Source: Thermoproteota archaeon (GTDB lineage Archaea; Thermoproteota; Thermoprotei_A; Sulfolobales; Ignisphaeraceae). Taken from it: a stretch of DNA of 64,000 bases. The notes under the pieces were generated by a model. The model made no database searches, was not told the DNA's origin, and saw only the letters and a program-made list of their open reading frames with translations. The stretch is taken from positions 100,333-164,332 of the forward strand of contig JAUQPB010000003.1 of NCBI GenBank assembly GCA_030550585.1, in the 5' to 3' direction. The position numbers were made by a program, and so were the translations under genes. Of the stretch, positions 4,498 to 61,378 are shown in pieces; position 1 is the stretch's first letter; every line of letters begins with the position of its first letter.

Positions 4498-4585
4498 TGG
4501 TGCGGGGGGTGGGATTTGAACCCACGCAGGCCTACGCCATCGGGTCCTGAGCCCGACCCCTTTGACCTGGCTCGGGCACCCCCGC
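4498..4585 (-). tRNA. tRNA-Leu(CAG)
   Basis: Reverse complement GCGGGGGTGCCCGAGCCAGGTCAAAGGGG-TCGGG-CTCAGGA-CCCGA-long variable arm-GTGGGTTCAAATCCCAC-CCCCCGCA-CCA; intronless, CCA encoded. Confidence 0.97.
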
Positions 4586-31219: not shown

Positions 31220-31307
31220 TGGTGCGGGGGGTGGGATTTGAACCCACGCAGGCCTACGCCATCGGGGCCTAAGCCCGACCCCTTTGACCTGGCTCGGGCA
31301 CCCCCGC
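31220..31307 (-). tRNA. tRNA-Leu(UAG)
   Basis: Same body as tRNA at 4498-4585, anticodon loop CTTAGGC; CCA encoded; no intron. Confidence 0.97.
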
Positions 31308-47993: not shown

Positions 47994-48618
47994 CGAAATA
48001 ATTAAATTATCGAGACCAACAAAAATAGAGCTCATAAGACTCAGAAGAAGACTTGCACTAAGTAGAAGAATACATAGGATTTTGAGAGATAGACTAACTT
48101 TTCTGATGCAGGAGTTCTACACAGTTTACAGAAAGGCATTTGAATCTAGACGCAGACTCCATGAAATGCTCAATGAAATCTACAAAAGCTACTCACACGC
48201 TGTTGCTATACATGGCCTTGAGATCCTCGATACCGGGGCAAACACCATCAACGGAACAGTAGAGGTTGTGGCAGGCACAAGAAATGTCATGGGTGTTGTG
48301 GCACCGTCTATGGAAATATCCTCTATACCTATGCACACACCTGCATTGCCGATCGAGGTTGCAGATATCCAGGTAAAACGCAATGAGTTCTTAGAGACGC
48401 TTGTTTCCGTAGCCGAATACGAGAAAGAGCTGATTGAGCTAGCCATGGAGATTTCAAGAGTGAGAAGAGTTGTCATGATGCTAGAAAAGGTTTTGATACC
48501 AAGGCTCATCACAACCATAAGATATCTTATGATGAAATTTGATGAAATGGAGAGAGAGGAGAAGGTTAGAAGCATGAAGATAAAATCTTTATTGCTTCAA
48601 AGATCTGAGGGAGTGTAG
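47986..48618 (+). CDS. atpD: A/V-type ATP synthase subunit D
   Basis: RPTKIEL.RLRRRL, RR.V..LEKVLIP, EMEREE; CTG start at 47986 after GAGGGGG inferred (ORF track starts 47920). Confidence 0.9.
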
Positions 48619-50427
48619 CACAAAATCTACAATATTTTTTGTAGGGGCTGCTGGAATTCCCAACCTATAAATTCTAGCAATTCTATATACATTATCTGAT
48701 GCCAGCATCGATGCAAAACCCTTTCTATAAGCTTCAACAATATACTCGATATTGTCGTCTATAACAACAGCTTTTGCATCATCGAATCCCTCTAAACAAT
48801 TGAAATACATAGCTATTTTTATTGGCCCTGCATTACCGTCTCTACCAATCACCTTATAGACAAATTCGCTAACCCCAAGTTTATTGAGAACAGCTTTAGC
48901 CACTTTCATGCTCTGCTTAGTAGCAATACATATGGTAGCCTCTTCACTAAGTTGTTTCAGAGCCTGTCTAGAGGCATAGAGGTCATTCTTGCTTAATTTA
49001 TTTAAGGAGCTGAGCTCCGCCTCTTCTATAATGCTAGATAAAGTTTCAAACCCCTTTTTGTCACTGCTCCAAAGCCTAACCATAGCCCTATTTATTGTCT
49101 CCCACTCTTTGACTAGCCCAAGTTCCACAAGTTTTTGTCTAACCCTTCTCCAATCTACTGGAAGCTGGGTTAATGTGGCATCCAAATCAAAGATTACAAC
49201 TCTTCTTCTACTCTCTAAAAATTGTGTAAACCTCTTAAGCCAGTAAACCAACTCAATTCTAGAACCCTCCAGATATGCCCTCCAACTATCGCGTTCTCTA
49301 GAAAACCTTTCCAAAGCCTTCAAAATCTGCATCAAGTTTTTTGCAGGCTCCAATAGATCAACGTCGCTTCGCAAAGGATTTGCAACCATTTTTCTAGCCA
49401 TGTATATCCAAACCGATGGTATCTTGGCCAAGTATCTTAGCCCATCCAAAACCCATACAAATTCTCCCCCATGTACCTTCAACCTCTTTGCAAGTTCCCT
49501 TGCACTTTCCTCGCCGTATATATAAGCAGCTACGAGAATTCCTGGGAAATGATATCCTAGCGACACAGCCAGATCTATGCTTCCCCAAAACTTGGGATTT
49601 ACCTCAATTACATAGTATACCCCCAGCTCATCAACATATCTTGTTTCGACCATTAGAACCCCATTCCATCTCAATAGCTCTACAACTTTTCTCCCAATGG
49701 CATAGAGCTGAGGATCCTCCACAGGGCCTTTCGCACATAGGCTTGCACCACCAACCGGTTGATATTCGACTATCCTCTGATGAGTGAACTCTACAATGGG
49801 TTTGCCCTCAAATGCCAATGCATAATATCCTCTTCCGATTCCTTCAACATATTCTTGAACAACACACGGAATTCTTCTAACAGCTTCTGAAACAGCTGAC
49901 TCAGAATCTAGATGAAAAGACGGGTTAGATGCATCACCAAGATTTTTTACCACAAGAGGTGGGGAAAGCCCGTATATACTCTCAGCATCGTGACTGCTAC
50001 CTACAAACACCTGCTTTGGAAACGCAACAGCTTTGCCCAATTTGTCAACAATTCTAACCCTATCCGATGCCAATACAATATCTTCGTAGCGTGGTGCTGC
50101 AACTGTTATCCCAAGCTCATAGAATATTTTCGCATATTTAGAAAAACCTACGAAATCAATATAATCCACGGGAACAACAACGTCGCATCCGTGTTTATGT
50201 GCAACCATAGCTACTATGTAAGGCCAGTCAACACCTTCTCTTCTAACCTTATACAAATATCTATAATCAAATATTCCAGAAAAAAGGTGGGGGTGAATGC
50301 TGTGAGCAACGCCAACAATCTTGATATTCAATAAACCTTTTATAGATTTTGCTATTGCCATAGATTTTCTAGAAGATATAGAGGCTACAACAGCACATTT
50401 GTCCAACGGCCATCGCCACAAAGACAT
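48589..50427 (-). CDS. ATP-grasp (carboxylate-amine ligase-like) fused to HAD-family phosphatase
   Basis: VVQEYVEG, GGAS, IEVNPKFWGS (ATP-grasp); IFDLDATL, IATKQ, VIDD (HAD motifs I, II, IV). Confidence 0.82.
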   Translation of the reverse strand: MSLWRWPLDKCAVVASISSRKSMAIAKSIKGLLNIKIVGVAHSIHPHLFSGIFDYRYLYKVRREGVDWPYIVAMVAHKHGCDVVVPVDYIDFVGFSKYAKIFYELGITVAAPRYEDIVLASDRVRIVDKLGKAVAFPKQVFVGSSHDAESIYGLSPPLVVKNLGDASNPSFHLDSESAVSEAVRRIPCVVQEYVEGIGRGYYALAFEGKPIVEFTHQRIVEYQPVGGASLCAKGPVEDPQLYAIGRKVVELLRWNGVLMVETRYVDELGVYYVIEVNPKFWGSIDLAVSLGYHFPGILVAAYIYGEESARELAKRLKVHGGEFVWVLDGLRYLAKIPSVWIYMARKMVANPLRSDVDLLEPAKNLMQILKALERFSRERDSWRAYLEGSRIELVYWLKRFTQFLESRRRVVIFDLDATLTQLPVDWRRVRQKLVELGLVKEWETINRAMVRLWSSDKKGFETLSSIIEEAELSSLNKLSKNDLYASRQALKQLSEEATICIATKQSMKVAKAVLNKLGVSEFVYKVIGRDGNAGPIKIAMYFNCLEGFDDAKAVVIDDNIEYIVEAYRKGFASMLASDNVYRIARIYRLGIPAAPTKNIVDFVLHSLRSLKQ

Positions 50428-52342: not shown

Positions 52343-53458
52343 CTATGTAATAGTCTCTTCCGATTTCAAATAAATCTTTATGTGTATTCCAAAATAATCA
52401 TTTTCGGGTATGATGCTATCAAATTGAAGAAGTCCTGTGATAGCATATGGCTCCATATACTCTATAAAGTCTTTGTATGGTATTGATAGATCCTTTATTT
52501 TGACTTCACAATCTCTTCTATCTATTCTAGCAAACGTCTCTACATAGATGTACTCAGCTCTAACATACCTCTTCTCAGCACTTCTATACAATGAGCTATA
52601 TAGGCTTTGAATATCTTTTACTCTCAATTCTGTAGAGACTCTCCGTGCCGTTTTAATCATGTTTCTCACAAATTTCTTCCTTTCATCAACAACATTAATA
52701 AATCTCCTTATAGCATATGGCTGTTGCTCAAAAAGTCTATATATGTTGTCAACCAGAAACAACACCTTTTCTCCCGTGCTATTCTTCTCATGACCAATAA
52801 TCGTTGTTTCATCACATAACCGTATTTTTCTATACCTTATACCAAATCTCGACAAAAATTCTAAGTCCAAACCCGTAAAGTATTTTTTAAATAGATCATA
52901 GTCTATGTTTCTCGTTATTAACAGAAAATATGTGAATTCATTATGTAGAGGCAGGAGTGCTAGAAGTGATGTGTACAAACCCTTCAATATTCTGATTATG
53001 TGAAGAGGGTTGCCTGTTAAGGTGTTGTAATCTGTATCAAGAATGTTGGAGGCTGTTGTCGAGGGTCTTGCAATAATGGAACTTTTATAGATGTCAGATA
53101 GTATAACAATCATCGATTCGATTTCTTTAATAGTTCTAGATTCTCCAAAAAGGAGTGAAATCTTCTGCAATGCTGTTTCATATGGCATCCCACGTGCAAC
53201 ATCCTTTATGGCTTCAGAACATTTGATGCACTTTATGCCAAAAAACTCTTCGAAAATTTTCTGTATGTCTCTCCAATGACCTATAGTGTTTTTGCCTATA
53301 ATGCCTGCAACAATCTTTTTTGTTTTTATATCAGAGGATGTCATTGAAAACTTGTTATATAATCCAACAACCCTTTCACAATATCCTAAAGCTCTTCCAA
53401 TATCCCTTTTAAAAAACTGTTTCCATTTCTCATTGCTTGCTACAGATGGTATGAGCAT
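52343..53458 (-). CDS. Hypothetical protein (orphan)
   Basis: 371-aa open frame with GGAAGGT SD; no recognised motif. Confidence 0.65.
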   Translation of the reverse strand: MLIPSVASNEKWKQFFKRDIGRALGYCERVVGLYNKFSMTSSDIKTKKIVAGIIGKNTIGHWRDIQKIFEEFFGIKCIKCSEAIKDVARGMPYETALQKISLLFGESRTIKEIESMIVILSDIYKSSIIARPSTTASNILDTDYNTLTGNPLHIIRILKGLYTSLLALLPLHNEFTYFLLITRNIDYDLFKKYFTGLDLEFLSRFGIRYRKIRLCDETTIIGHEKNSTGEKVLFLVDNIYRLFEQQPYAIRRFINVVDERKKFVRNMIKTARRVSTELRVKDIQSLYSSLYRSAEKRYVRAEYIYVETFARIDRRDCEVKIKDLSIPYKDFIEYMEPYAITGLLQFDSIIPENDYFGIHIKIYLKSEETIT

Positions 53459-54934: not shown

Positions 54935-57151
54935 CTATATCTTTAGCTCCATCCTTTTACCAGAGTACTCTACTTCTATGTCAGGTTTTGATTCTTCGAT
55001 TCCAACCCCTCTACCCTTATCTACCAACACAATTTTAAATTTCATAGATCCTATGCTCATAGCCCCCTTCTTCTCGTCGATAATTATCTTATTCTCTTTC
55101 TCAACCCATCTAATTGGTATGACTGCATAGAAGCCCTTTTCATAGTCATATGTTTCGCCATCATCTAGATAGATCATAAATTCACCATCTCTACCTCTAT
55201 ATATTCTCAGCTCTATCTCGCTTCCATAGTCATCCGCTTTTTCAATAGTTGCAGGTGCTAGGGGTAGTATCGCACCACCCCTAACATGTAGGGGTATTCT
55301 ATCTAGAGGTGCCTCAACTCTTATCCACCTACCTCCTAACACCCTATCGCCAGTCCAAAAGTCGTACCACATACCATGTGGTAAATAAACATCTCTCTCA
55401 AATGTTGAGGGCAATGTGATGGGCGATACCATTATAAATGGTCCAAACATGTATTGGTCATCAATTATGGCGGCTGTTTTATCGTTTCTAAAGTCCATGA
55501 CAAGCGGTCTCATAATAGTGTAGTCATGTTCGTATACCATCCAGGCCAATGTGTATATGTACGGTAGAAGCCTATATCTAAGCCTAATGAATTTAACCAG
55601 TATTTCCTCAGCCTCTTTTCCAAATCTCCAAGGCTCCTTTGGATAGTATGTCCCGTGAACTCTGAATATAGGGCAGAAGACACCCCATTGGAACCATCTA
55701 ATAAACAGTTCCTTGTATCCATCGGTCTCTGGGTTTCCGCTAAAGAACCCTCCAATATCTGTTGTCCAGTATGGTAGTCCAGATAAGCTGTAGTTTAGAC
55801 CTGCCCATATCTGTGCTCTGAAGGTTGTCCAGTCACCTGTTATATCACCACTCCAATTAACAACGCCATATCTTTGAATTCCTGCAAAGCCTGATCTTGT
55901 TAATATAAGAACCCTTTTGTTAGAAACTGCTCTCTGTCCTCTGTAAACAGCTTCTGATTCGAATAATGGGTAGACATTCAACAATTTAATCATCTTTTTC
56001 CCATTTCCAATATCTAGAGACTTCTGCCATGTTGAGTATATCAAGAGGGGTCTAACCTCCGGCTCTGAGGCGTCTAGCCACCAGCCATCTATGCCTATGC
56101 TATAGAAAACCTCGCTTATCTTCCTCCAGAACCATTCCCTACACTCTTCCTTAAAGACATTTAGAAGACCAAAATCATCTGCACCCGAGCCCATTAGACA
56201 ATTGTTTTTCTCTGCTTCTCTATATACATCAGTTTTCTTTTCGAATATAGGCCAAATAGATATGGCTAATCTGATGCCAAGCTTATGTATGTCTTCGACC
56301 ATCTTCTTTGGATCTGGATAATACTTCTCATCAAATTTGAATGCATTCCATCCATAATCTCCCCAGTATCTCCAATCCTGAACAATTATGTCAATAGGTA
56401 TTCTCCTCTCTCTAAACATTTTTGCAACAGAAACAATCTCTTCTTGTGAAGCATACCTCTCTTTAGATTGCCAGTAGCCAAAGGCATATCTTGGTAGCAT
56501 TACAGCCTTTCCAGTTAACCACCTATACCCCGCTATAACCCTGTCAAGTTCGGGCCCATAGATAATGTAGTAGCTAAGATAGTCGCCAGCCTCAAACCAT
56601 ACCCTGAGAATATCTCTCCTAGACTCTACAACACCCATTGAATACATGTCCCATAGAATACCATAGCCCGAGCTAGAAACTAAGAACGGAACAGCAATAT
56701 CAGTATTTCTCTGCACTAGGTAAACAGTTCTATTCCTATAATCAAATGCATTGTGAGCAGAATAGCCAGCGTGCTGACCAAGACCTAGAAGCAGCGAGTC
56801 TGGCTCTATTCTAAATATCTGCTCGAAGGTATAGAAATCCTCACCATAGAGTCTCTGCTTAGTGGCTTTCCTGTCTATCTCTTCAATTGGAATATCCCCA
56901 AATCTAAAATCTATTTTGTTTTTACCCATATCAACATAAACAGTGATTTCATTCGATGAAACAGCAACTATATCGCCAGATCTATACACATCAACATTGA
57001 CATGCCTAGGCTTTGCAATAACAACTATACTATTATCTTTGAATTGAGATGTTGACGGAACGTGTACAACACGCACAATGTTACTGTCAAAGAACTCTAT
57101 TACGACTTTGCCAACACCAAAAGATAGTTCAACTCCTTGTGATTCATACAT
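54935..57151 (-). CDS. Glycoside hydrolase family 31, alpha-xylosidase (XylS-like)
   Basis: GYWQSKERY, WWLDASEP (nucleophile), WSGDI (acid/base), TTDIGGF, FRVHG. Confidence 0.9.
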   Translation of the reverse strand: MYESQGVELSFGVGKVVIEFFDSNIVRVVHVPSTSQFKDNSIVVIAKPRHVNVDVYRSGDIVAVSSNEITVYVDMGKNKIDFRFGDIPIEEIDRKATKQRLYGEDFYTFEQIFRIEPDSLLLGLGQHAGYSAHNAFDYRNRTVYLVQRNTDIAVPFLVSSSGYGILWDMYSMGVVESRRDILRVWFEAGDYLSYYIIYGPELDRVIAGYRWLTGKAVMLPRYAFGYWQSKERYASQEEIVSVAKMFRERRIPIDIIVQDWRYWGDYGWNAFKFDEKYYPDPKKMVEDIHKLGIRLAISIWPIFEKKTDVYREAEKNNCLMGSGADDFGLLNVFKEECREWFWRKISEVFYSIGIDGWWLDASEPEVRPLLIYSTWQKSLDIGNGKKMIKLLNVYPLFESEAVYRGQRAVSNKRVLILTRSGFAGIQRYGVVNWSGDITGDWTTFRAQIWAGLNYSLSGLPYWTTDIGGFFSGNPETDGYKELFIRWFQWGVFCPIFRVHGTYYPKEPWRFGKEAEEILVKFIRLRYRLLPYIYTLAWMVYEHDYTIMRPLVMDFRNDKTAAIIDDQYMFGPFIMVSPITLPSTFERDVYLPHGMWYDFWTGDRVLGGRWIRVEAPLDRIPLHVRGGAILPLAPATIEKADDYGSEIELRIYRGRDGEFMIYLDDGETYDYEKGFYAVIPIRWVEKENKIIIDEKKGAMSIGSMKFKIVLVDKGRGVGIEESKPDIEVEYSGKRMELKI

Positions 57152-57204
57152 AAATTTGTGCCACCATGAATTTTGTAGCCCCTACCTTTAAAAATGTTTG
57201 TAAA

Positions 57205-57483
57205 CTAATCGCATTTGCATGTACACATATTGATTACCTCTACAAATGTATCTAAACCCCTCTCAGATAGCTCTCCTATTACCTTGGGCATTTTCTCTAG
57301 TGGAAATGCATATAGGGAGCCGTTTATCTTTATTCCATCCATTAGCTCTACCAGCCCCTTGGATCTATATCTCTTCCCTTTTATGGTGACCACAGTTCCA
57401 TTCATTGTCTTGTAGATCTTTATCTTAACATTCCTTGGCACATTTTGAGCTACCTTCAGCAACACATATCCAGATGGCTTCAC
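57205..57483 (-). CDS. Small basic hypothetical protein with C-terminal CxCxC
   Basis: 92 aa, ATG overlaps upstream stop (ATGA); ends MCTCKCD. Confidence 0.7.
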   Translation of the reverse strand: MKPSGYVLLKVAQNVPRNVKIKIYKTMNGTVVTIKGKRYRSKGLVELMDGIKINGSLYAFPLEKMPKVIGELSERGLDTFVEVINMCTCKCD

Positions 57484-58034
57484 TGTTTTTCAACCTCTTC
57501 TAAACATAGATCCTCTCTACACCTTGTACTAGCCTTGGTTAGAATATTGGCAACCGATTTGCTCCTTTCAAACATTTTAATTATTCCTCTAAGTACATTT
57601 TCTCGAACAGTCAACAACGTCTTTACACATTCGATTAAATCACTGTTTCCAGTTTCTCTTAACCTCTTCAACAGCTTCTCTATGCATTCGTCTATATGGA
57701 TGAGCGCTGTGGTAGAGTGCTTTAATGCACACCAAATGCTTTCCCACGATGATCTAACATCCGTGCTACCGCCCTTCGCACTCTCAAGCTTTTCAACCAG
57801 GAACAGCGCTTGACCGACAAGCTTTCTCTGCTCCCTAAAAGAATCGATAATATCAGAAAAGATTGGTGCTCCAACATAAGAATCCGATTCTATTAGATGT
57901 TGTTCAACATGATTAAGATGGCCAATGGCATATATAAACTCTTGTATTAAAGCCTCCTCCCAAACAGCAGACCTACCAGCCTCGCCTTTATCCCCAACTA
58001 ACTGCTTAGCCGATTCCAACTGGGCTTGTGACAT
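57480..58034 (-). CDS. Hypothetical four-helix-bundle protein with two H-x6-H-x2-E motifs
   Basis: GHLNHVEQHLIE and KHSTTALIHIDE; amphipathic helices. Confidence 0.75.
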   Translation of the reverse strand: MSQAQLESAKQLVGDKGEAGRSAVWEEALIQEFIYAIGHLNHVEQHLIESDSYVGAPIFSDIIDSFREQRKLVGQALFLVEKLESAKGGSTDVRSSWESIWCALKHSTTALIHIDECIEKLLKRLRETGNSDLIECVKTLLTVRENVLRGIIKMFERSKSVANILTKASTRCREDLCLEEVEKQ

Positions 58035-58043
58035 ATAAGATAC

Positions 58044-58075
58044 CCATTTTTATGCAAATTCTTGCATAAAAATGG
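58044..58075. promoter_or_regulatory. Perfect 14-bp inverted repeat, candidate operator
   Basis: CCATTTTTATGCAA-ATTC-TTGCATAAAAATGG, about 10 nt upstream of the 58034 start codon. Confidence 0.7.
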
Positions 58076-58211
58076 CTAACTTGGCTAATAAATTTTACCC
58101 CTAGTTCTAATTTCATCATAAGTAATGCTAAGTTTTGTAGCAAACTTCTATCTGTTTTTGCAATGAAAATAATAACCAGCTAAATGTAACAATATTTGAG
58201 GTTGAGTTCGA

Positions 58212-58577
58212 TTGGATATAAATACTATTTTGAATTCAAGAAAAGGTATAGAAAAAGTTATGGGAGATGTTCTAAGGGTTTTAAGGCTATATAGAAGGCT
58301 GTGGTTATCTGAAATCCACATGGAGATAGAGGGCATGAACTCAACGTTAAAAGAAGAGGTGCCTAGTTATAACGATGTAAAGAGGGCTGTTAAAGAGTTG
58401 AGCAACCTAGGGTATGTACATGTAGAGAAAGGGATTAGAGGTTCTTTGCAGCATGTACATGGAATAGAGGATTATCTTGTAACAATAGTCGATGATGTAA
58501 AAATAGTCAATGCTTTGACTAATGACAAAAAGCTCTCTGAGTATATGAGAATAAAATATGGCTTTATGGAAATGTAG
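58212..58577 (+). CDS. Hypothetical winged-helix-like protein
   Basis: VLRVL...LWLSEI...SYNDVKRAVKELSNLGYVHV pattern. Confidence 0.6.
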   Translation: MDINTILNSRKGIEKVMGDVLRVLRLYRRLWLSEIHMEIEGMNSTLKEEVPSYNDVKRAVKELSNLGYVHVEKGIRGSLQHVHGIEDYLVTIVDDVKIVNALTNDKKLSEYMRIKYGFMEM

Positions 58578-58621
58578 GATACAACAATTCGATGTTTTTG
58601 CTAAAATGAGTCTAGAATGCA

Positions 58622-61378
58622 CTATGACTTTACTAGATCTTTTATTATATTCTTTACAGCAGTTTCGACGTCGTTTATCGATGCTTCTGCCATTCCAGTA
58701 ACATGATCGCTTTTCCCACCTGCTCTAAGTATGATTTTTCTAGCCAGTGCTTTGGTAATTTCCCTAGCGTCAATGTGTCTGCTTGATTCTCTACCCAATG
58801 ATATTTCAACAAATGTTTTTCCATTTCTTGGTTGCAAGACTATGAGTAGTAGCCTTGGCTCTTTTTCTATAGCTTTAATGATAACGTCTTTCACAAGTTC
58901 TTCGTCTTGTATCTCGGGCTTCAGTATATACATCTTGAGATTTCCTATGGGCTCGCCACCCTTAATGATTTGCTCTATCAGCATGTTCTCATATATTGTT
59001 CTATATGATTTTAGTGTGTTTTCTAAGGTTCTAATGTATTTGACTATGCCTTCAACTCTTTTATCAAGATCTTCGATGCTCGAACCTAGTAAGGCTCCGA
59101 TTTTTCCGAGTTTGCCTTCAATTTGCTTAGCATAATCCGTTAATGCTGTTCCTGCTACAAATTCGAATCTTATTATTCCATCTGCTATTTTCTCAACATT
59201 TATTATCTTTATTGCCCCCACCTCCTTGGTGTTCTTAACATGTGTGCCAAAGCATGCTTCGGCATCCCAGCCCGGTATCTCTACAACCCTGATGATCGGT
59301 GTCATTGGAACTCCTCCTTGGTATAGGACAAAACCATAGGTTTTTTCAGCTTCATTTCTATCCATATACTTTATGTTGACATCCAAACCACTGTCGATGA
59401 GGCTGTTAGCTAGGTTTTCTATTTTCTCTATCTCCTCCTTTGAAGGCATTTTGTAGTGTGTTACATCAAGTCTAGCTTTATACTCTGTCTTCTCAGCACC
59501 TGCCTGCCATATGTGATCCCCTAGAACTTTTCTCAAGGCTCCGAGGACTATGTGAGTTGCTGTATGGTGTCTCATTCTCCTATATCTTATCCCCCAATCA
59601 ATTTCTCCTACAACTTCCACACCCTTTTCCAAGCCTTCGGCATTTTCAAGAATGTGCACAACAACATCCCCAACCTTCTTAGTATCAATAACCTTGTAAA
59701 CATTTCCGGATGTTCTTATATACCCAGAGTCCCCTAACTGGCCGCCACCCTCGGGATAGAAGGCTGAGGCATCTAATACCACATAATTCTTATAAACATC
59801 TATGACCTGGGCCTTGAACGCCTTCTGGTATGGATCCTCATGGAATATTCTCCTAGTTGGCGGTAATTTCTTGGCCCACTCAATAACATCTTTTGGAAGC
59901 TTCACATCTTCCAGTTCTCTAACAGTTTTTGGCTTGCTGTGTCGTGAGGCTACAAGAGAGTAGAAATTGGCTGGAATCTCAATTCTTGAGCCACGTTTTT
60001 TCTCTATCTCTTGCGACACAATGTCTGGTGGAATTCCATGAGAGTCGTACAGCTCTACCAGATCCTCTGTTGAAAGTGATTTCCTCAGATACTTTTCTAT
60101 TACTGTAGAAGCTTTTGATATTATTTCTTTGAACCTTTCTTCCTCTATCAGGATGATTTCAAGGATTCTATCTCTGTATTTTATCATTTGCGGGTATATA
60201 TCGCCCCAGAAGTTGAGTTGTTTTGCAACAAGCTCGGCAAGAGGTGTTTCTGACCCTAGTTTACTTAGCCTTCTCAGTGTTCTTCTAATGACCAGTCTGG
60301 CAAGATAGCCCTCACCACTATTGGAGGGTACAATACCATCTGCTAACATCAATGCTATAGTCTTTGTATGATCTAAAACAGCATAGACATCAAACACATT
60401 TCTTAGCTGATCTTGTATCTCCTTTTCACCTAAGCCAAAATCTCTTGAGATGACTCTAATTAGATTAGCCAGCTCCTCTGCTTTTGTTAGATCGAAACGC
60501 CCAGCTTTTCTAGCTAGAGAATATAGAATCTCTTTATCCGGTTCTAAAACATTTAGTGCCTTGTGAAACTCTCTAACAAGATCCCCATATACTGCATGAA
60601 AAGCCGTAGGCGTTTTTCGAGAAAACCAGGCTATCCTTTCTATGCCATATCCTGTATCCACTATCTTTAGCGGCAACTCTATATAGTTATCGCCATCAAC
60701 CTTATACATCATAAAGACTAGTGTAGCAAGCTCCAAACCTCCGACAGCAACCTCGAAGCTTGGCCCGGCGTTTCCTCCTCCCTCCCACCACGACTCTTTA
60801 AACGTTATCTCCTCTTCCGGTACCCCAAGCTCTTCTACAAAGAAGTCTTTGGCTAATTCAACTGTTTCATTGACCCAGTATACAGTTTTATCTGGATAGT
60901 TAAATGCATGATGACCTCCCATCGTAAAGTTCGTTAGATGCCTCCCTAGGGTATATCCAACAGAATCTATATCCTCTAGCCTTATACAAGGCTGTGCGAT
61001 CACAAGCGGATTAGCTGGCGGCGGCACCAAGCCTGATGTAACATGGGGTTGGAAAACCACAATACTTGCAATAGTTAGGTAGAGATCCTCTCTCCACCTT
61101 GCAACAACAGGTCTTGGTTCTATTATTTCGTGTCCTCTCCTTTTGAAAAATTCTAGAAATATATTTCTGGCTTCTCTATATCCCAAAGACCTTTTTGTTG
61201 GTATATCAAAAAACGTGTAATCAGCGCAGGGTGCATCTCCACAGTTATCCCTATCTATTACACTCCAAAAATATGTTTTACAGTAACGACATTGAGCTCT
61301 TTTGTACCCTTTATTTTTAAACATTTGAACTGCATAAAAATTCGGGTCTATTACTCTCTGCATAAGCAGCTCCATCAA
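58622..61378 (-). CDS. alaS: Alanine--tRNA ligase
   Basis: LTIASI..FQP, QPCIR, GGGNAGP, DTGYGIER, HHTATH, ACFGTH editing motif. Confidence 0.97.
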   Translation of the reverse strand: MMELLMQRVIDPNFYAVQMFKNKGYKRAQCRYCKTYFWSVIDRDNCGDAPCADYTFFDIPTKRSLGYREARNIFLEFFKRRGHEIIEPRPVVARWREDLYLTIASIVVFQPHVTSGLVPPPANPLVIAQPCIRLEDIDSVGYTLGRHLTNFTMGGHHAFNYPDKTVYWVNETVELAKDFFVEELGVPEEEITFKESWWEGGGNAGPSFEVAVGGLELATLVFMMYKVDGDNYIELPLKIVDTGYGIERIAWFSRKTPTAFHAVYGDLVREFHKALNVLEPDKEILYSLARKAGRFDLTKAEELANLIRVISRDFGLGEKEIQDQLRNVFDVYAVLDHTKTIALMLADGIVPSNSGEGYLARLVIRRTLRRLSKLGSETPLAELVAKQLNFWGDIYPQMIKYRDRILEIILIEEERFKEIISKASTVIEKYLRKSLSTEDLVELYDSHGIPPDIVSQEIEKKRGSRIEIPANFYSLVASRHSKPKTVRELEDVKLPKDVIEWAKKLPPTRRIFHEDPYQKAFKAQVIDVYKNYVVLDASAFYPEGGGQLGDSGYIRTSGNVYKVIDTKKVGDVVVHILENAEGLEKGVEVVGEIDWGIRYRRMRHHTATHIVLGALRKVLGDHIWQAGAEKTEYKARLDVTHYKMPSKEEIEKIENLANSLIDSGLDVNIKYMDRNEAEKTYGFVLYQGGVPMTPIIRVVEIPGWDAEACFGTHVKNTKEVGAIKIINVEKIADGIIRFEFVAGTALTDYAKQIEGKLGKIGALLGSSIEDLDKRVEGIVKYIRTLENTLKSYRTIYENMLIEQIIKGGEPIGNLKMYILKPEIQDEELVKDVIIKAIEKEPRLLLIVLQPRNGKTFVEISLGRESSRHIDAREITKALARKIILRAGGKSDHVTGMAEASINDVETAVKNIIKDLVKS

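Follow-up and report, generated by a model that had tools for sequence, protein, structure and literature searches.

Ferritin-like di-iron proteins carry two E...E-x-x-H ligand motifs, one per helix pair, and rubrerythrin adds to this plan a C-terminal, Cys-based metal site. Hemerythrins and other HHE proteins use five His ligands together with acidic residues, in the pattern H...HxxxE...HxxxH...HxxxxD laid over four helices. The AhpD motif is E...C-x-x-C-x3-H, Erv/ALR proteins hold an active-site C-x-x-C beside a bound flavin, and HEPN RNases are marked by a catalytic R-x4-6-H motif. On the regulatory side, some archaeal repressors keep RNA polymerase from being recruited by occupying a dyad at the TATA box or immediately past it. 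Here we analyze a two-gene locus in a 64,000-nucleotide stretch of a contig from an Ignisphaeraceae archaeon of the Thermoproteota (JAUQPB010000003.1, positions 100,333 to 164,332). It encodes a 184-residue protein (P184) and a 92-residue protein (P92) behind an inverted repeat, or dyad. We find that dyad, P184, and P92 make up a self-contained two-gene cassette kept across an Ignisphaera-like clade of Thermoproteota, and that P184 is an enzyme-like, internally duplicated helical protein of an unnamed family.

Throughout, the window means the whole 64-kb stretch, and all window coordinates are in that numbering. Its features relevant to the cassette are the following.

57480-58034, minus strand: P184, an open reading frame (ORF) of 184 amino acids, acidic (isoelectric point, pI, 5.6), ATG start, helical.
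57205-57483, minus strand: P92, an ORF of 92 amino acids, basic (pI 9.6), GTG start, ending C-T-C-K-C-D.
57480-57483, minus strand: stop/start overlap of P184 and P92, 4 nt, GTGA, read from the sequence.
58044-58075, minus strand: perfect 14-bp inverted repeat, the candidate operator, read from the sequence.
58050-58069, minus strand: palindrome core TTATGC-N8-GCATAA, conserved across the P92-bearing loci.
58085-58092, minus strand: TATA-like box TTTATTAG, predicted from sequence, ~15 nt upstream of the core site.
58212-58577, plus strand: divergent ORF of 121 amino acids (105 if the ATG at 58260 is used), called on codon usage; a neighbor, outside the module.

The 4-nt overlap implies that P184 and P92 are translationally coupled. 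A preliminary description of the locus had reported an ATGA overlap; the overlap stands, but its letters are GTGA, with P92 starting at GTG. The same description was accurate in placing a perfect 14-bp inverted repeat just upstream of P184, in reading the motifs H-x6-H-x2-E (twice), WC..KH, and CREDLC in that protein, and in pointing to an Arg in the second helix of each hairpin (R67/R70 and R144, invariant in the 28-row alignment introduced below). For comparison, 26 related loci (cited by L numbers) were obtained from a profile search of genome contigs with the close P184 alignment, a set that lies apart from Staphylothermus-type homologues such as Smar_0754 and from the ~140-residue relatives. 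A 4-nt overlap occurs in L002-L006 as well (ATGA, GTGA, or TTGA), and L001 is likewise by reading of its sequence; in L008-L011 the homologues of P184 and P92 do not overlap and are separated by gaps of 3-15 nt.

The P184 motifs are H39-x6-H46-x2-E49, H106-x6-H113-x2-E116, W101-C102-x2-K105-H106, and, near the C terminus, C172-x4-C177. A word-indexed protein search returned 46 relatives, all labeled "hypothetical," from Ignisphaera and its relatives, plus Staphylothermus marinus Smar_0754. An exhaustive P184 profile search of 1.84 billion cluster representatives gave only 49 matches at E ≤ 1e-3, many of them ~140 residues long and roughly 20-30% identical to P184. The close alignment (A1) holds 28 rows, namely the window protein and 27 of the 46 relatives, and 32 of its columns are invariant, including five His and three Cys: Y35, H39, H42, E44, Q45, H46, E49, D51, R67, R70, K71, G74, R94, E98, W101, C102, K105, H106, A110, L111, I112, H113, D115, E116, E119, K120, L140, R144, R171, C172, D175, and C177. 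The broad alignment of 34 sequences (the window protein, 9 relatives from the indexed search, and 24 cluster representatives, some ~20% identical) leaves seven residues invariant, H46, R67, W101, C102, K105, H106, and E116, and three nearly so (E32, R70, and H113), with His or Asn at position 39. Thus, the early expectation that the His, Glu, and Cys residues would be conserved in homologues was borne out at both depths. W-C-x2-K-H is present in 35 of the 37 representatives of at least 120 residues, and the R-C-R-E-D-L-C tail in all 26 locus homologues of P184. A C-terminal Cys pair occurs in 16 of these 37 representatives, usually as C-x-x-C-x-[ED]-[DE], with P0086 as a 17th in which the motif sits in the middle of the protein. 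So dense a set of invariant His, Glu, Cys, Arg, and Lys residues points to a specific chemistry.

Two of the distant representatives, P0096 (237 residues) and P0097 (368 residues), have the half with W-C-x2-K-H ahead of the half with [H/N]-x6-H-x2-E, an apparent circular permutation. Both also have extra N-terminal domains and a C-terminal C-I-T-C-x-E-D, and no part of either has a Pfam match.

No described family accounts for these proteins. P184 has no Pfam or NCBIfam family at E ≤ 1, and none of 28 distant relatives reaches a Pfam cut-off, giving sub-threshold noise only. PADLOC returned no matches for the 8 proteins scanned, PHROGs returned only noise (best E 0.0094, for one distant P184 relative), and profile searches of the PDB with both the close and the broad P184 alignments gave nothing below E 0.04 and nothing related. 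The preliminary description had not recognized the locus as a described system, and indeed none of its proteins matches a known family. In a literature search that was not exhaustive and did not extend to subscription literature, we found no published description of P184, P92, or the TTATGC motif and no paper on Smar_0754. A viral lead, from the third match in an Atlas search (score 0.85, in a cluster with 46% viral members), was not confirmed: tblastn of two distant relatives, P0093 and P0064, against 50,697 phage records found nothing.

The model of P184 built with AlphaFold2 (AF2) from the 28-row alignment has four long helices (residues 16-54, 60-88, 94-128, and 132-160), in keeping with the helical bundle first proposed. 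Its mean predicted local distance difference test score (pLDDT) is 73.3 and its predicted template modeling score (pTM) 0.53, with pLDDT <50 in the tail (169-184). Compared with the PDB by Foldseek, this model gave nothing at E ≤ 0.001; the best match was IncA at E 0.17, with a template modeling (TM) score of ~0.3, and the best against BFVD, a set of viral models, was at E 0.39. The matches are generic helical bundles with TM of ~0.2-0.35. An hhalign comparison of residues 22-90 and 91-165 over the broad alignment brought the two halves into register, H39 with H106, H46 with H113, E49 with E116, and the R67/R70 region with R144 (probability 51.7%, E 1.5e-4). This in-register alignment suggests an internal duplication behind the His/Glu motif, weakly detectable, and to that extent upholds the pseudo-symmetry seen at the outset.

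The arrangement of the conserved residues bears on where a site might lie. A helical wheel drawn from the broad alignment separates the conserved polar residues from the hydrophobic face by 108-176 degrees in helices 1 and 3, where the two moments differ by 158 and 176 degrees. Because they sit opposite the hydrophobic face, these residues argue against a buried, ferritin-like site, and the polar stripes would agree better with a site on a surface, in a cleft, or at an interface than with one in the core of a ferritin-like bundle. The initial idea of a dinuclear-metal four-helix bundle therefore keeps its helices and its conserved His and Glu residues, whereas the helical wheel speaks against the burial that such a bundle calls for.

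The inverted repeat, 10-41 nt ahead of the P184 ATG, has its arms at 58044-58057 and 58062-58075 around a 4-nt spacer and extends to 21-nt arms at 90% complementarity. Folded as RNA it reaches -18.9 kcal/mol (z = -6.4), and none of 200 shuffles folds as well. A degenerate form of the core pattern is expected 0.25 times by chance in one window, and 20 of 100 shuffles contain at least one; what places the repeat beyond chance is its conservation in all 13 partner-bearing loci, the window included. TTATGC-N8-GCATAA has its sole match in the 64-kb window at this site, and 10 loci have the exact core one time each, in every case directly ahead of the gene for the P184 homologue. L003 differs by one mismatch, and L025 has a symmetric variant with the same change in both half-sites; TTATG and CATAA are invariant in 13 of 13 (12 loci and the window). 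Pairing across the dyad is kept in 99% of cells over 8 pairs, 3 of which have changed on both sides (10 cells), a score that 0 of 500 shuffles reach. The palindrome was not found upstream in the 14 loci without P92. To our knowledge, the TTATGC half-site is not that of any described regulator.

The promoter context is equally regular. An anchored alignment of the 13 upstream regions shows boxes resembling TTTATAAG or CTTATAAA whose ends lie ~4-20 nt before the site (~4 nt in L008-L011), and the order of TATA-like box, dyad, and start codon is kept in all 13. Transcription in archaea starts at a usual distance from the TATA box, and with this spacing the position of the TATA-like box predicts a start at or inside the dyad. 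A dyad lying over the transcription start, as these sequences suggest, would occupy the classic position of a repressor site. A scan for terminators merely found the palindrome again, and Rfam has no match in 57000-58800. A candidate for the dyad-binding protein is P92 itself, given that in these loci neither P92 nor the dyad occurs without the other.

For P92, the indexed search found only two close relatives, and ORF analysis placed a P92 homologue directly downstream of the P184 homologue in 12 of the 26 loci (L001-L011 and L025). In an alignment of 15 sequences, with identity to P92 down to 29%, the invariant residues are G29, Y39, G43, L44, G50, Y58, P61, L72, L77, C87, C89, and C91, the last three forming a terminal C-x-C-x-C present in 15 of 15. 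The family is uniformly basic, with pI 9.2-9.9 against 4.9-5.9 for the acidic P184 family. The AF2 model of P92 (pLDDT 88.9, pTM 0.75) has the order b-a-b-b-(a)-b-b-a-b, with its last block, the Cys tail, poorly ordered (mean pLDDT 46). On this confident model P92 is likely to have a ferredoxin-like fold, as had been proposed for the partner. A Foldseek search of the PDB with the model gave nothing at E ≤ 0.001, the best matches being generic ferredoxin-like ones (a Cbf5 fragment, CutA1, HMA, PII, and S6; E ≥ 0.055, TM ≤ 0.37), and a PDB sequence/profile search with the P92 alignment gave nothing meaningful. An Atlas structure search matched small archaeal hypothetical proteins and part of NTP_transf_2 proteins at TM 0.70-0.74. 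For the likeness to Cas2 or VapD suggested early on there are only sub-threshold hints: P92 has no Pfam match to either, neither is among the Foldseek matches listed, and, of the 15 family members, 3 have a Pfam hit below threshold to the Cas2-like domain PaaX_M (best E 0.045). When P184 and P92 were co-folded from their alignments, the score was 0.01 against a mark of 0.32, which by the rule of the tool speaks neither for nor against binding.

The distribution of the cassette indicates how its parts came together. In a maximum-likelihood tree of 34 P184-type proteins, rooted at its midpoint only, all 13 rows with both P92 and the palindrome fall in one 15-row clade (support 99/100), the other two rows being database proteins without context. 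Because P92 is confined to this clade, its co-occurrence with the palindrome represents one evolutionary event rather than 13, and the association appears to reflect a single acquisition, retained through considerable divergence. The flanking genes differ in nearly every locus of the P92 clade while dyad, P184, and P92 stay constant. Co-occurrence of the genes elsewhere had been put forward as a check. The P184-P92 pair does recur, in 12 loci with the palindrome conserved, but P92 is missing from 14 of the 26 loci, and all of the pairs belong to one clade. P184 is the conserved member of the pair: P184-type genes without P92 occur in metagenome-assembled genomes (MAGs) of Sulfolobales and Desulfurococcales, in one Pyrodictium MAG, and in four genomes of Thermocrinis (Aquificota); P184 is single-copy in the window.

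In the tree, the Thermocrinis rows group with the one row from a Pyrodictium MAG (support 94/87, not starred), inside an archaeal group without P92. This placement beside Pyrodictium among archaeal sequences suggests that the P184-type gene passed from archaea to these bacteria. In all four Thermocrinis loci (L019:4688-6766, L020:5998-7947, L022:925-2874, and L026:5998-7947), the P184-type gene ends 3 nt before a gene for a UbiD-family decarboxylase, followed in L020 by a PurF-like gene; judged by this gene order, a functional tie of the Thermocrinis protein to UbiD is possible. Elsewhere, a GalT-like gene (DUF4921 / GalP_UDP_transf) lies divergently upstream of a solo P184-type gene (L012:4815-5813, L014:342-1343, L018:4854-5864, and L024:4857-5855), an adjacency in four related MAGs that may be synteny within one clade.

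We favor a model in which P184 is a metal- and/or thiol-dependent protein with its site at a polar face or interface, the Cys tails act as arms, and a dimeric repressor binds the dyad; we give this reading a probability of roughly 40%. P184 would be a pseudo-symmetric pair of helical hairpins, in which the two [H/N]-x6-H-x2-E stripes and an E98-C102-H106 stripe would form a metal-binding and/or thiol-reactive site, probably on a polar face or a subunit interface and not in a hydrophobic core of the ferritin-like type. Both flexible Cys-bearing ends, the pair in P184 and the Cys3 tail of P92, could swing toward this site to hand over or take up a metal ion, electrons, or a group bound through thiol or sulfur, with P92 as an accessory carrier subunit that a single lineage gained. 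A dimeric DNA-binding protein would control transcription from TTATGC-N8-GCATAA, a site overlapping or abutting the transcription start, and the model does not call for the divergent ORF. A bolder version, which we regard as improbable, is that P184 founds an undescribed class of pseudo-symmetric helical metallo-/thiol-enzymes of hyperthermophiles, with Cys arms, P92 as carrier, a thiol/disulfide or sulfur/metal relay, and autoregulation at the dyad by P92 or the complex. If this were true, P184 and P92 could form a cytoplasmic relay without counterpart among described systems.

Several observations weigh against a metal- or thiol-dependent P184. The conserved polar residues face away from the hydrophobic side of their helices, unlike the buried ligands of ferritin-like proteins and hemerythrins, and P184 has no sequence or fold match to a known metalloprotein or thiol oxidoreductase. 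Its model is only moderate in confidence, as the pTM of 0.53 indicates, and the close alignment gives no signal of internal duplication (hhalign probability 0.2%). By regular expression, the C-terminal Cys motif is missing from 21 of the 37 representatives, one of which, P0086, has it further upstream; H39 is replaced by Asn in many distant relatives, and H42 is not conserved outside the close clade. P92 is restricted to a single clade, so its co-occurrence with the palindrome counts once, and redox-type neighbors are few and inconsistent among loci.

The operator half of the model can be read in two other ways. P92 could be a basic, dimeric autoregulator on TTATGC-N8-GCATAA, with its Cys3 tail or bound P184 sensing redox state or metal and lifting repression, and P184 as effector or sensor. 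This would be compatible with the metal/thiol model, altering only the identity of the operator binder. Palindrome and P92 occur together in 13 of 13 cases and are both missing from the other 14 loci, the P92 family is uniformly basic (pI 9.2-9.9), and no conserved regulator gene lies nearby, the winged-helix ORF being found in 0 of 26 loci and other helix-turn-helix neighbors only sporadically (L004, L016, and L023). The change in both half-sites of L025 is also what co-evolution with a dimer site would produce. However, the co-occurrence is confined to one clade and so is a single event, the P92 model has no recognized DNA-binding fold and matches no DNA-binding family by sequence or, among the matches listed, by structure, and autoregulators are usually encoded by the first gene of such operons; we consider this role for P92 possible but somewhat doubtful. 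Less likely still is that the dyad works through a hairpin formed by the transcript or by single-stranded DNA, for instance a stability or translation element of the 5' untranslated region, and not as a duplex operator. In favor of this, 99% of cells still pair, 3 of the 8 pairs have undergone compensatory double changes, the predicted RNA hairpins across loci range from -7.4 to -18.9 kcal/mol at 37 C, and in most loci the TATA-like box lies far enough upstream for the whole palindrome to be transcribed. Yet TTATG and CATAA are kept in sequence, beyond what pairing alone would need, and the stems are A/U-rich and in most loci 7-10 bp long, weak at the roughly 90 C at which relatives of Ignisphaera grow; it is the invariance of the half-sites and the A/U-rich stems, for such an organism, that make a hairpin less likely. 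In L008-L011, moreover, the box lies ~4 nt before the site, so the start would fall within the dyad, and Rfam holds no match.

As for P184 itself, it may not be a metalloprotein at all: the polar stripes could be an exposed surface that binds a nucleic acid, another protein, or a small anionic molecule, with the Cys residues in structural disulfides of a kind common in cytoplasmic proteins of hyperthermophiles. The position of the conserved polar residues opposite the hydrophobic faces, the invariant basic R67, R70, K71, K105, and K120 beside the His and Glu residues, and the failure of any metalloprotein family to match P184 all agree with this, as does the stabilization of proteins by intracellular disulfides in certain thermophilic archaea, as stated in two reports (PMC1188242, PMC3177088). 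Against it, five invariant His residues, in a duplicated i/i+7/i+10 spacing next to Glu, would be more typical of metal or catalytic sites, and C102 is invariant even in relatives without a second Cys nearby; a purely structural or binding role seems to us rather unlikely, if well worth keeping in view. Far more remote is a toxin-antitoxin or defense module, an idea that the preliminary description had floated, made up of an acidic upstream protein, a basic 92-residue downstream protein, a 4-nt overlap, and an autoregulatory palindrome. This architecture does match the type II arrangement, the cassette sits in different neighborhoods in different genomes, and the Atlas matches of P92 to part of NTP_transf_2 proteins (TM 0.70-0.74) fall in the fold class of the MNT antitoxin, although this is a lead only. 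But the family tests all failed, with no PADLOC match for the 8 proteins and no toxin or antitoxin family in Pfam or NCBIfam. P184 lacks R-x4-6-H, none of the invariant residues of P92 is acidic as a nucleotidyltransferase site would need, and no RelE, ParE, VapD, or Cas2 chain is among the Foldseek matches listed. P184 is also far more conserved than usual antitoxins, lacks a P92 partner in 14 of 26 loci, has no second copy in the window, and has a gene tree that groups by taxon.

The divergent ORF had been counted as a winged helix-turn-helix gene belonging to the module. Its codon usage, which scores 0.349 bits/codon in frame and below zero in each of the five alternative frames, is close to that of the GH31 glycosidase (0.374) and alanyl-tRNA synthetase (0.371) genes, and by this measure it is probably a real gene. 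It possibly encodes a winged-helix protein, judging from a Pfam match to Fe_dep_repress at E 0.036 (14.7 bits against a cut-off of 26, residues 56-73 only) that is below threshold for a DtxR/IdeR-type winged helix; NCBIfam, PDB, and PADLOC gave no match. No homologue was found within 6 kb in any of the 26 loci by ORF or six-frame search (best E 0.13), and the TATA-like box of the ORF lies ~140 nt or more from the dyad. Since the homologue is found in 0 of 26 loci and the winged-helix call is sub-threshold, the divergent ORF is not part of the P184-P92 module: the gene itself stands, its label is sub-threshold, and its membership is withdrawn. Imperfect inverted repeats at 58149-58248, with 26-nt arms that are 73% complementary, flank its TATA-like box and are too weak to interpret.

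The surroundings of the cassette in the window are ordinary chromosomal genes. Downstream of P92, on the same strand, lie the genes for the GH31 glycosidase and a pyridine-nucleotide disulfide oxidoreductase; beyond the divergent ORF are those for alanyl-tRNA synthetase and an acidic ribosomal stalk protein, with A-type ATPase subunits farther off. Among the flanking genes of the P92 clade, a neighbor scan that covered 67 of 151 candidate neighbor ORFs found radical SAM, MutS-like, and solute-binding proteins, a symporter, a Cys/Met pyridoxal phosphate enzyme, prephenate dehydratase, components of energy-coupling factor (ECF) transporters, and POR. The Pyr_redox_2-type oxidoreductase lies two genes downstream in the window and is convergent downstream in L001 and L006. 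In L009-L011, membrane-anchored C-P-x-C proteins are encoded divergently upstream, with a sub-threshold Thioredoxin_2 match (E ~0.005) in 2 of the 3 scanned (L010 and L011). These Pyr_redox_2 and sub-threshold thioredoxin-like neighbors are weak hints of thiol or redox chemistry.

Other genes of the wider neighborhoods are recorded here as observations in their own right. In the sub-clade of L008-L011, two conserved genes flank the cassette (L008:1176-1865, L009:5224-5769/6821-7534, L010:5196-5753/6838-7527, and L011:5243-5773/6782-7504). The upstream, divergent one encodes the membrane-anchored C-P-x-C protein and the downstream one a conserved multi-pass membrane protein with a D-S-F-D-P-C motif and no Pfam match; a CcdA-like identity, considered for these downstream membrane proteins, was dropped, as they have no Pfam match at all. 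In L025, the most divergent P92-bearing locus, genes for CbiQ and ABC_cobalt (ECF transporter) lie immediately upstream of the cassette on the same strand (L025:1897-3240). The window also contains two ordinary tRNA-Leu genes on the minus strand (4498-4585 and 31220-31307, anticodons CAG and TAG) and two minus-strand ORFs, 48589-50427 (612 residues) and 52343-53458 (371 residues), with no Pfam family at E ≤ 1e-5.

The P184 family may be relevant to high-temperature biology more broadly. It is small, strongly conserved, and largely hyperthermophile, extending over Ignisphaera, Staphylothermus, other Desulfurococcales and Sulfolobales MAGs, Pyrodictium, and, by apparent transfer, Thermocrinis, and it has no name, Pfam model, or structure. 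Should its chemistry depend on metal or thiols, a missing piece of redox or metal handling at high temperature would be filled in. If its function turns out to be ordinary, what remains is a well-defined family and an archaeal cis-regulatory motif, both of them new. In either case the cassette lends itself unusually well to experiment, with its conserved operator of 20 bp, its two proteins, and some ten residues that are obvious targets for mutation.

It is instructive to set these features against the systems with which we began. Like ferritin-like proteins and rubrerythrin, P184 has a duplicated pair of helical hairpins with His and Glu once per hairpin, and the Cys tails of P184 and P92 compare loosely with the C-terminal Cys site of rubrerythrin. 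However, P184 has no E-x-x-H at all, its conserved motif being [H/N]-x6-H-x2-E, and its candidate ligands lie on the first helix of each hairpin only, opposite the hydrophobic face; it has no Pfam or PDB sequence match to rubrerythrin, whose chains appear in Foldseek at E 2.3-2.7 and TM 0.22-0.31. With hemerythrins it shares a helical bundle and five conserved His residues plus acidic ones, but their pattern is missing, with only H42-x3-H46, whose H42 is not conserved, resembling one element, and there is no Pfam match at E ≤ 1. The all-helical fold and E98-x3-C102-x3-H106 recall AhpD and the carboxymuconolactone decarboxylases (CMD), a likeness at the level of the motif only. P184 has no C-x-x-C at that position, its other Cys residues lying in the tail only, and there is no CMD match in Pfam or among the Foldseek matches. 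In contrast to both Erv/ALR and AhpD, the C-x-x-C of P184 relatives sits in the C-terminal tail, again with no Pfam match. A HEPN assignment was rejected, as P184 has no Arg with a His 4-6 residues on and PADLOC and Pfam were empty.

The genetic layout invites two further comparisons. As in type II toxin-antitoxin systems, two small overlapping genes, one for an acidic and one for a basic protein, follow a promoter palindrome. Neither protein belongs to a known toxin or antitoxin family, however, and P184 is highly conserved, has enzyme-like invariant residues, and is often solo, so that the pairing is not obligate. A second likeness is to archaeal repressor sites: in all 13 loci the dyad sits in the short stretch between a TATA-like box and the start codon. 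The P184 and P92 families are new and undescribed, and the geometry of the site departs from the rules of ferritin-like proteins and hemerythrins. Overall, the kind of system that they form is familiar: a helical His/Glu/Cys protein with a Cys-tailed partner, under the control of a dyad operator.

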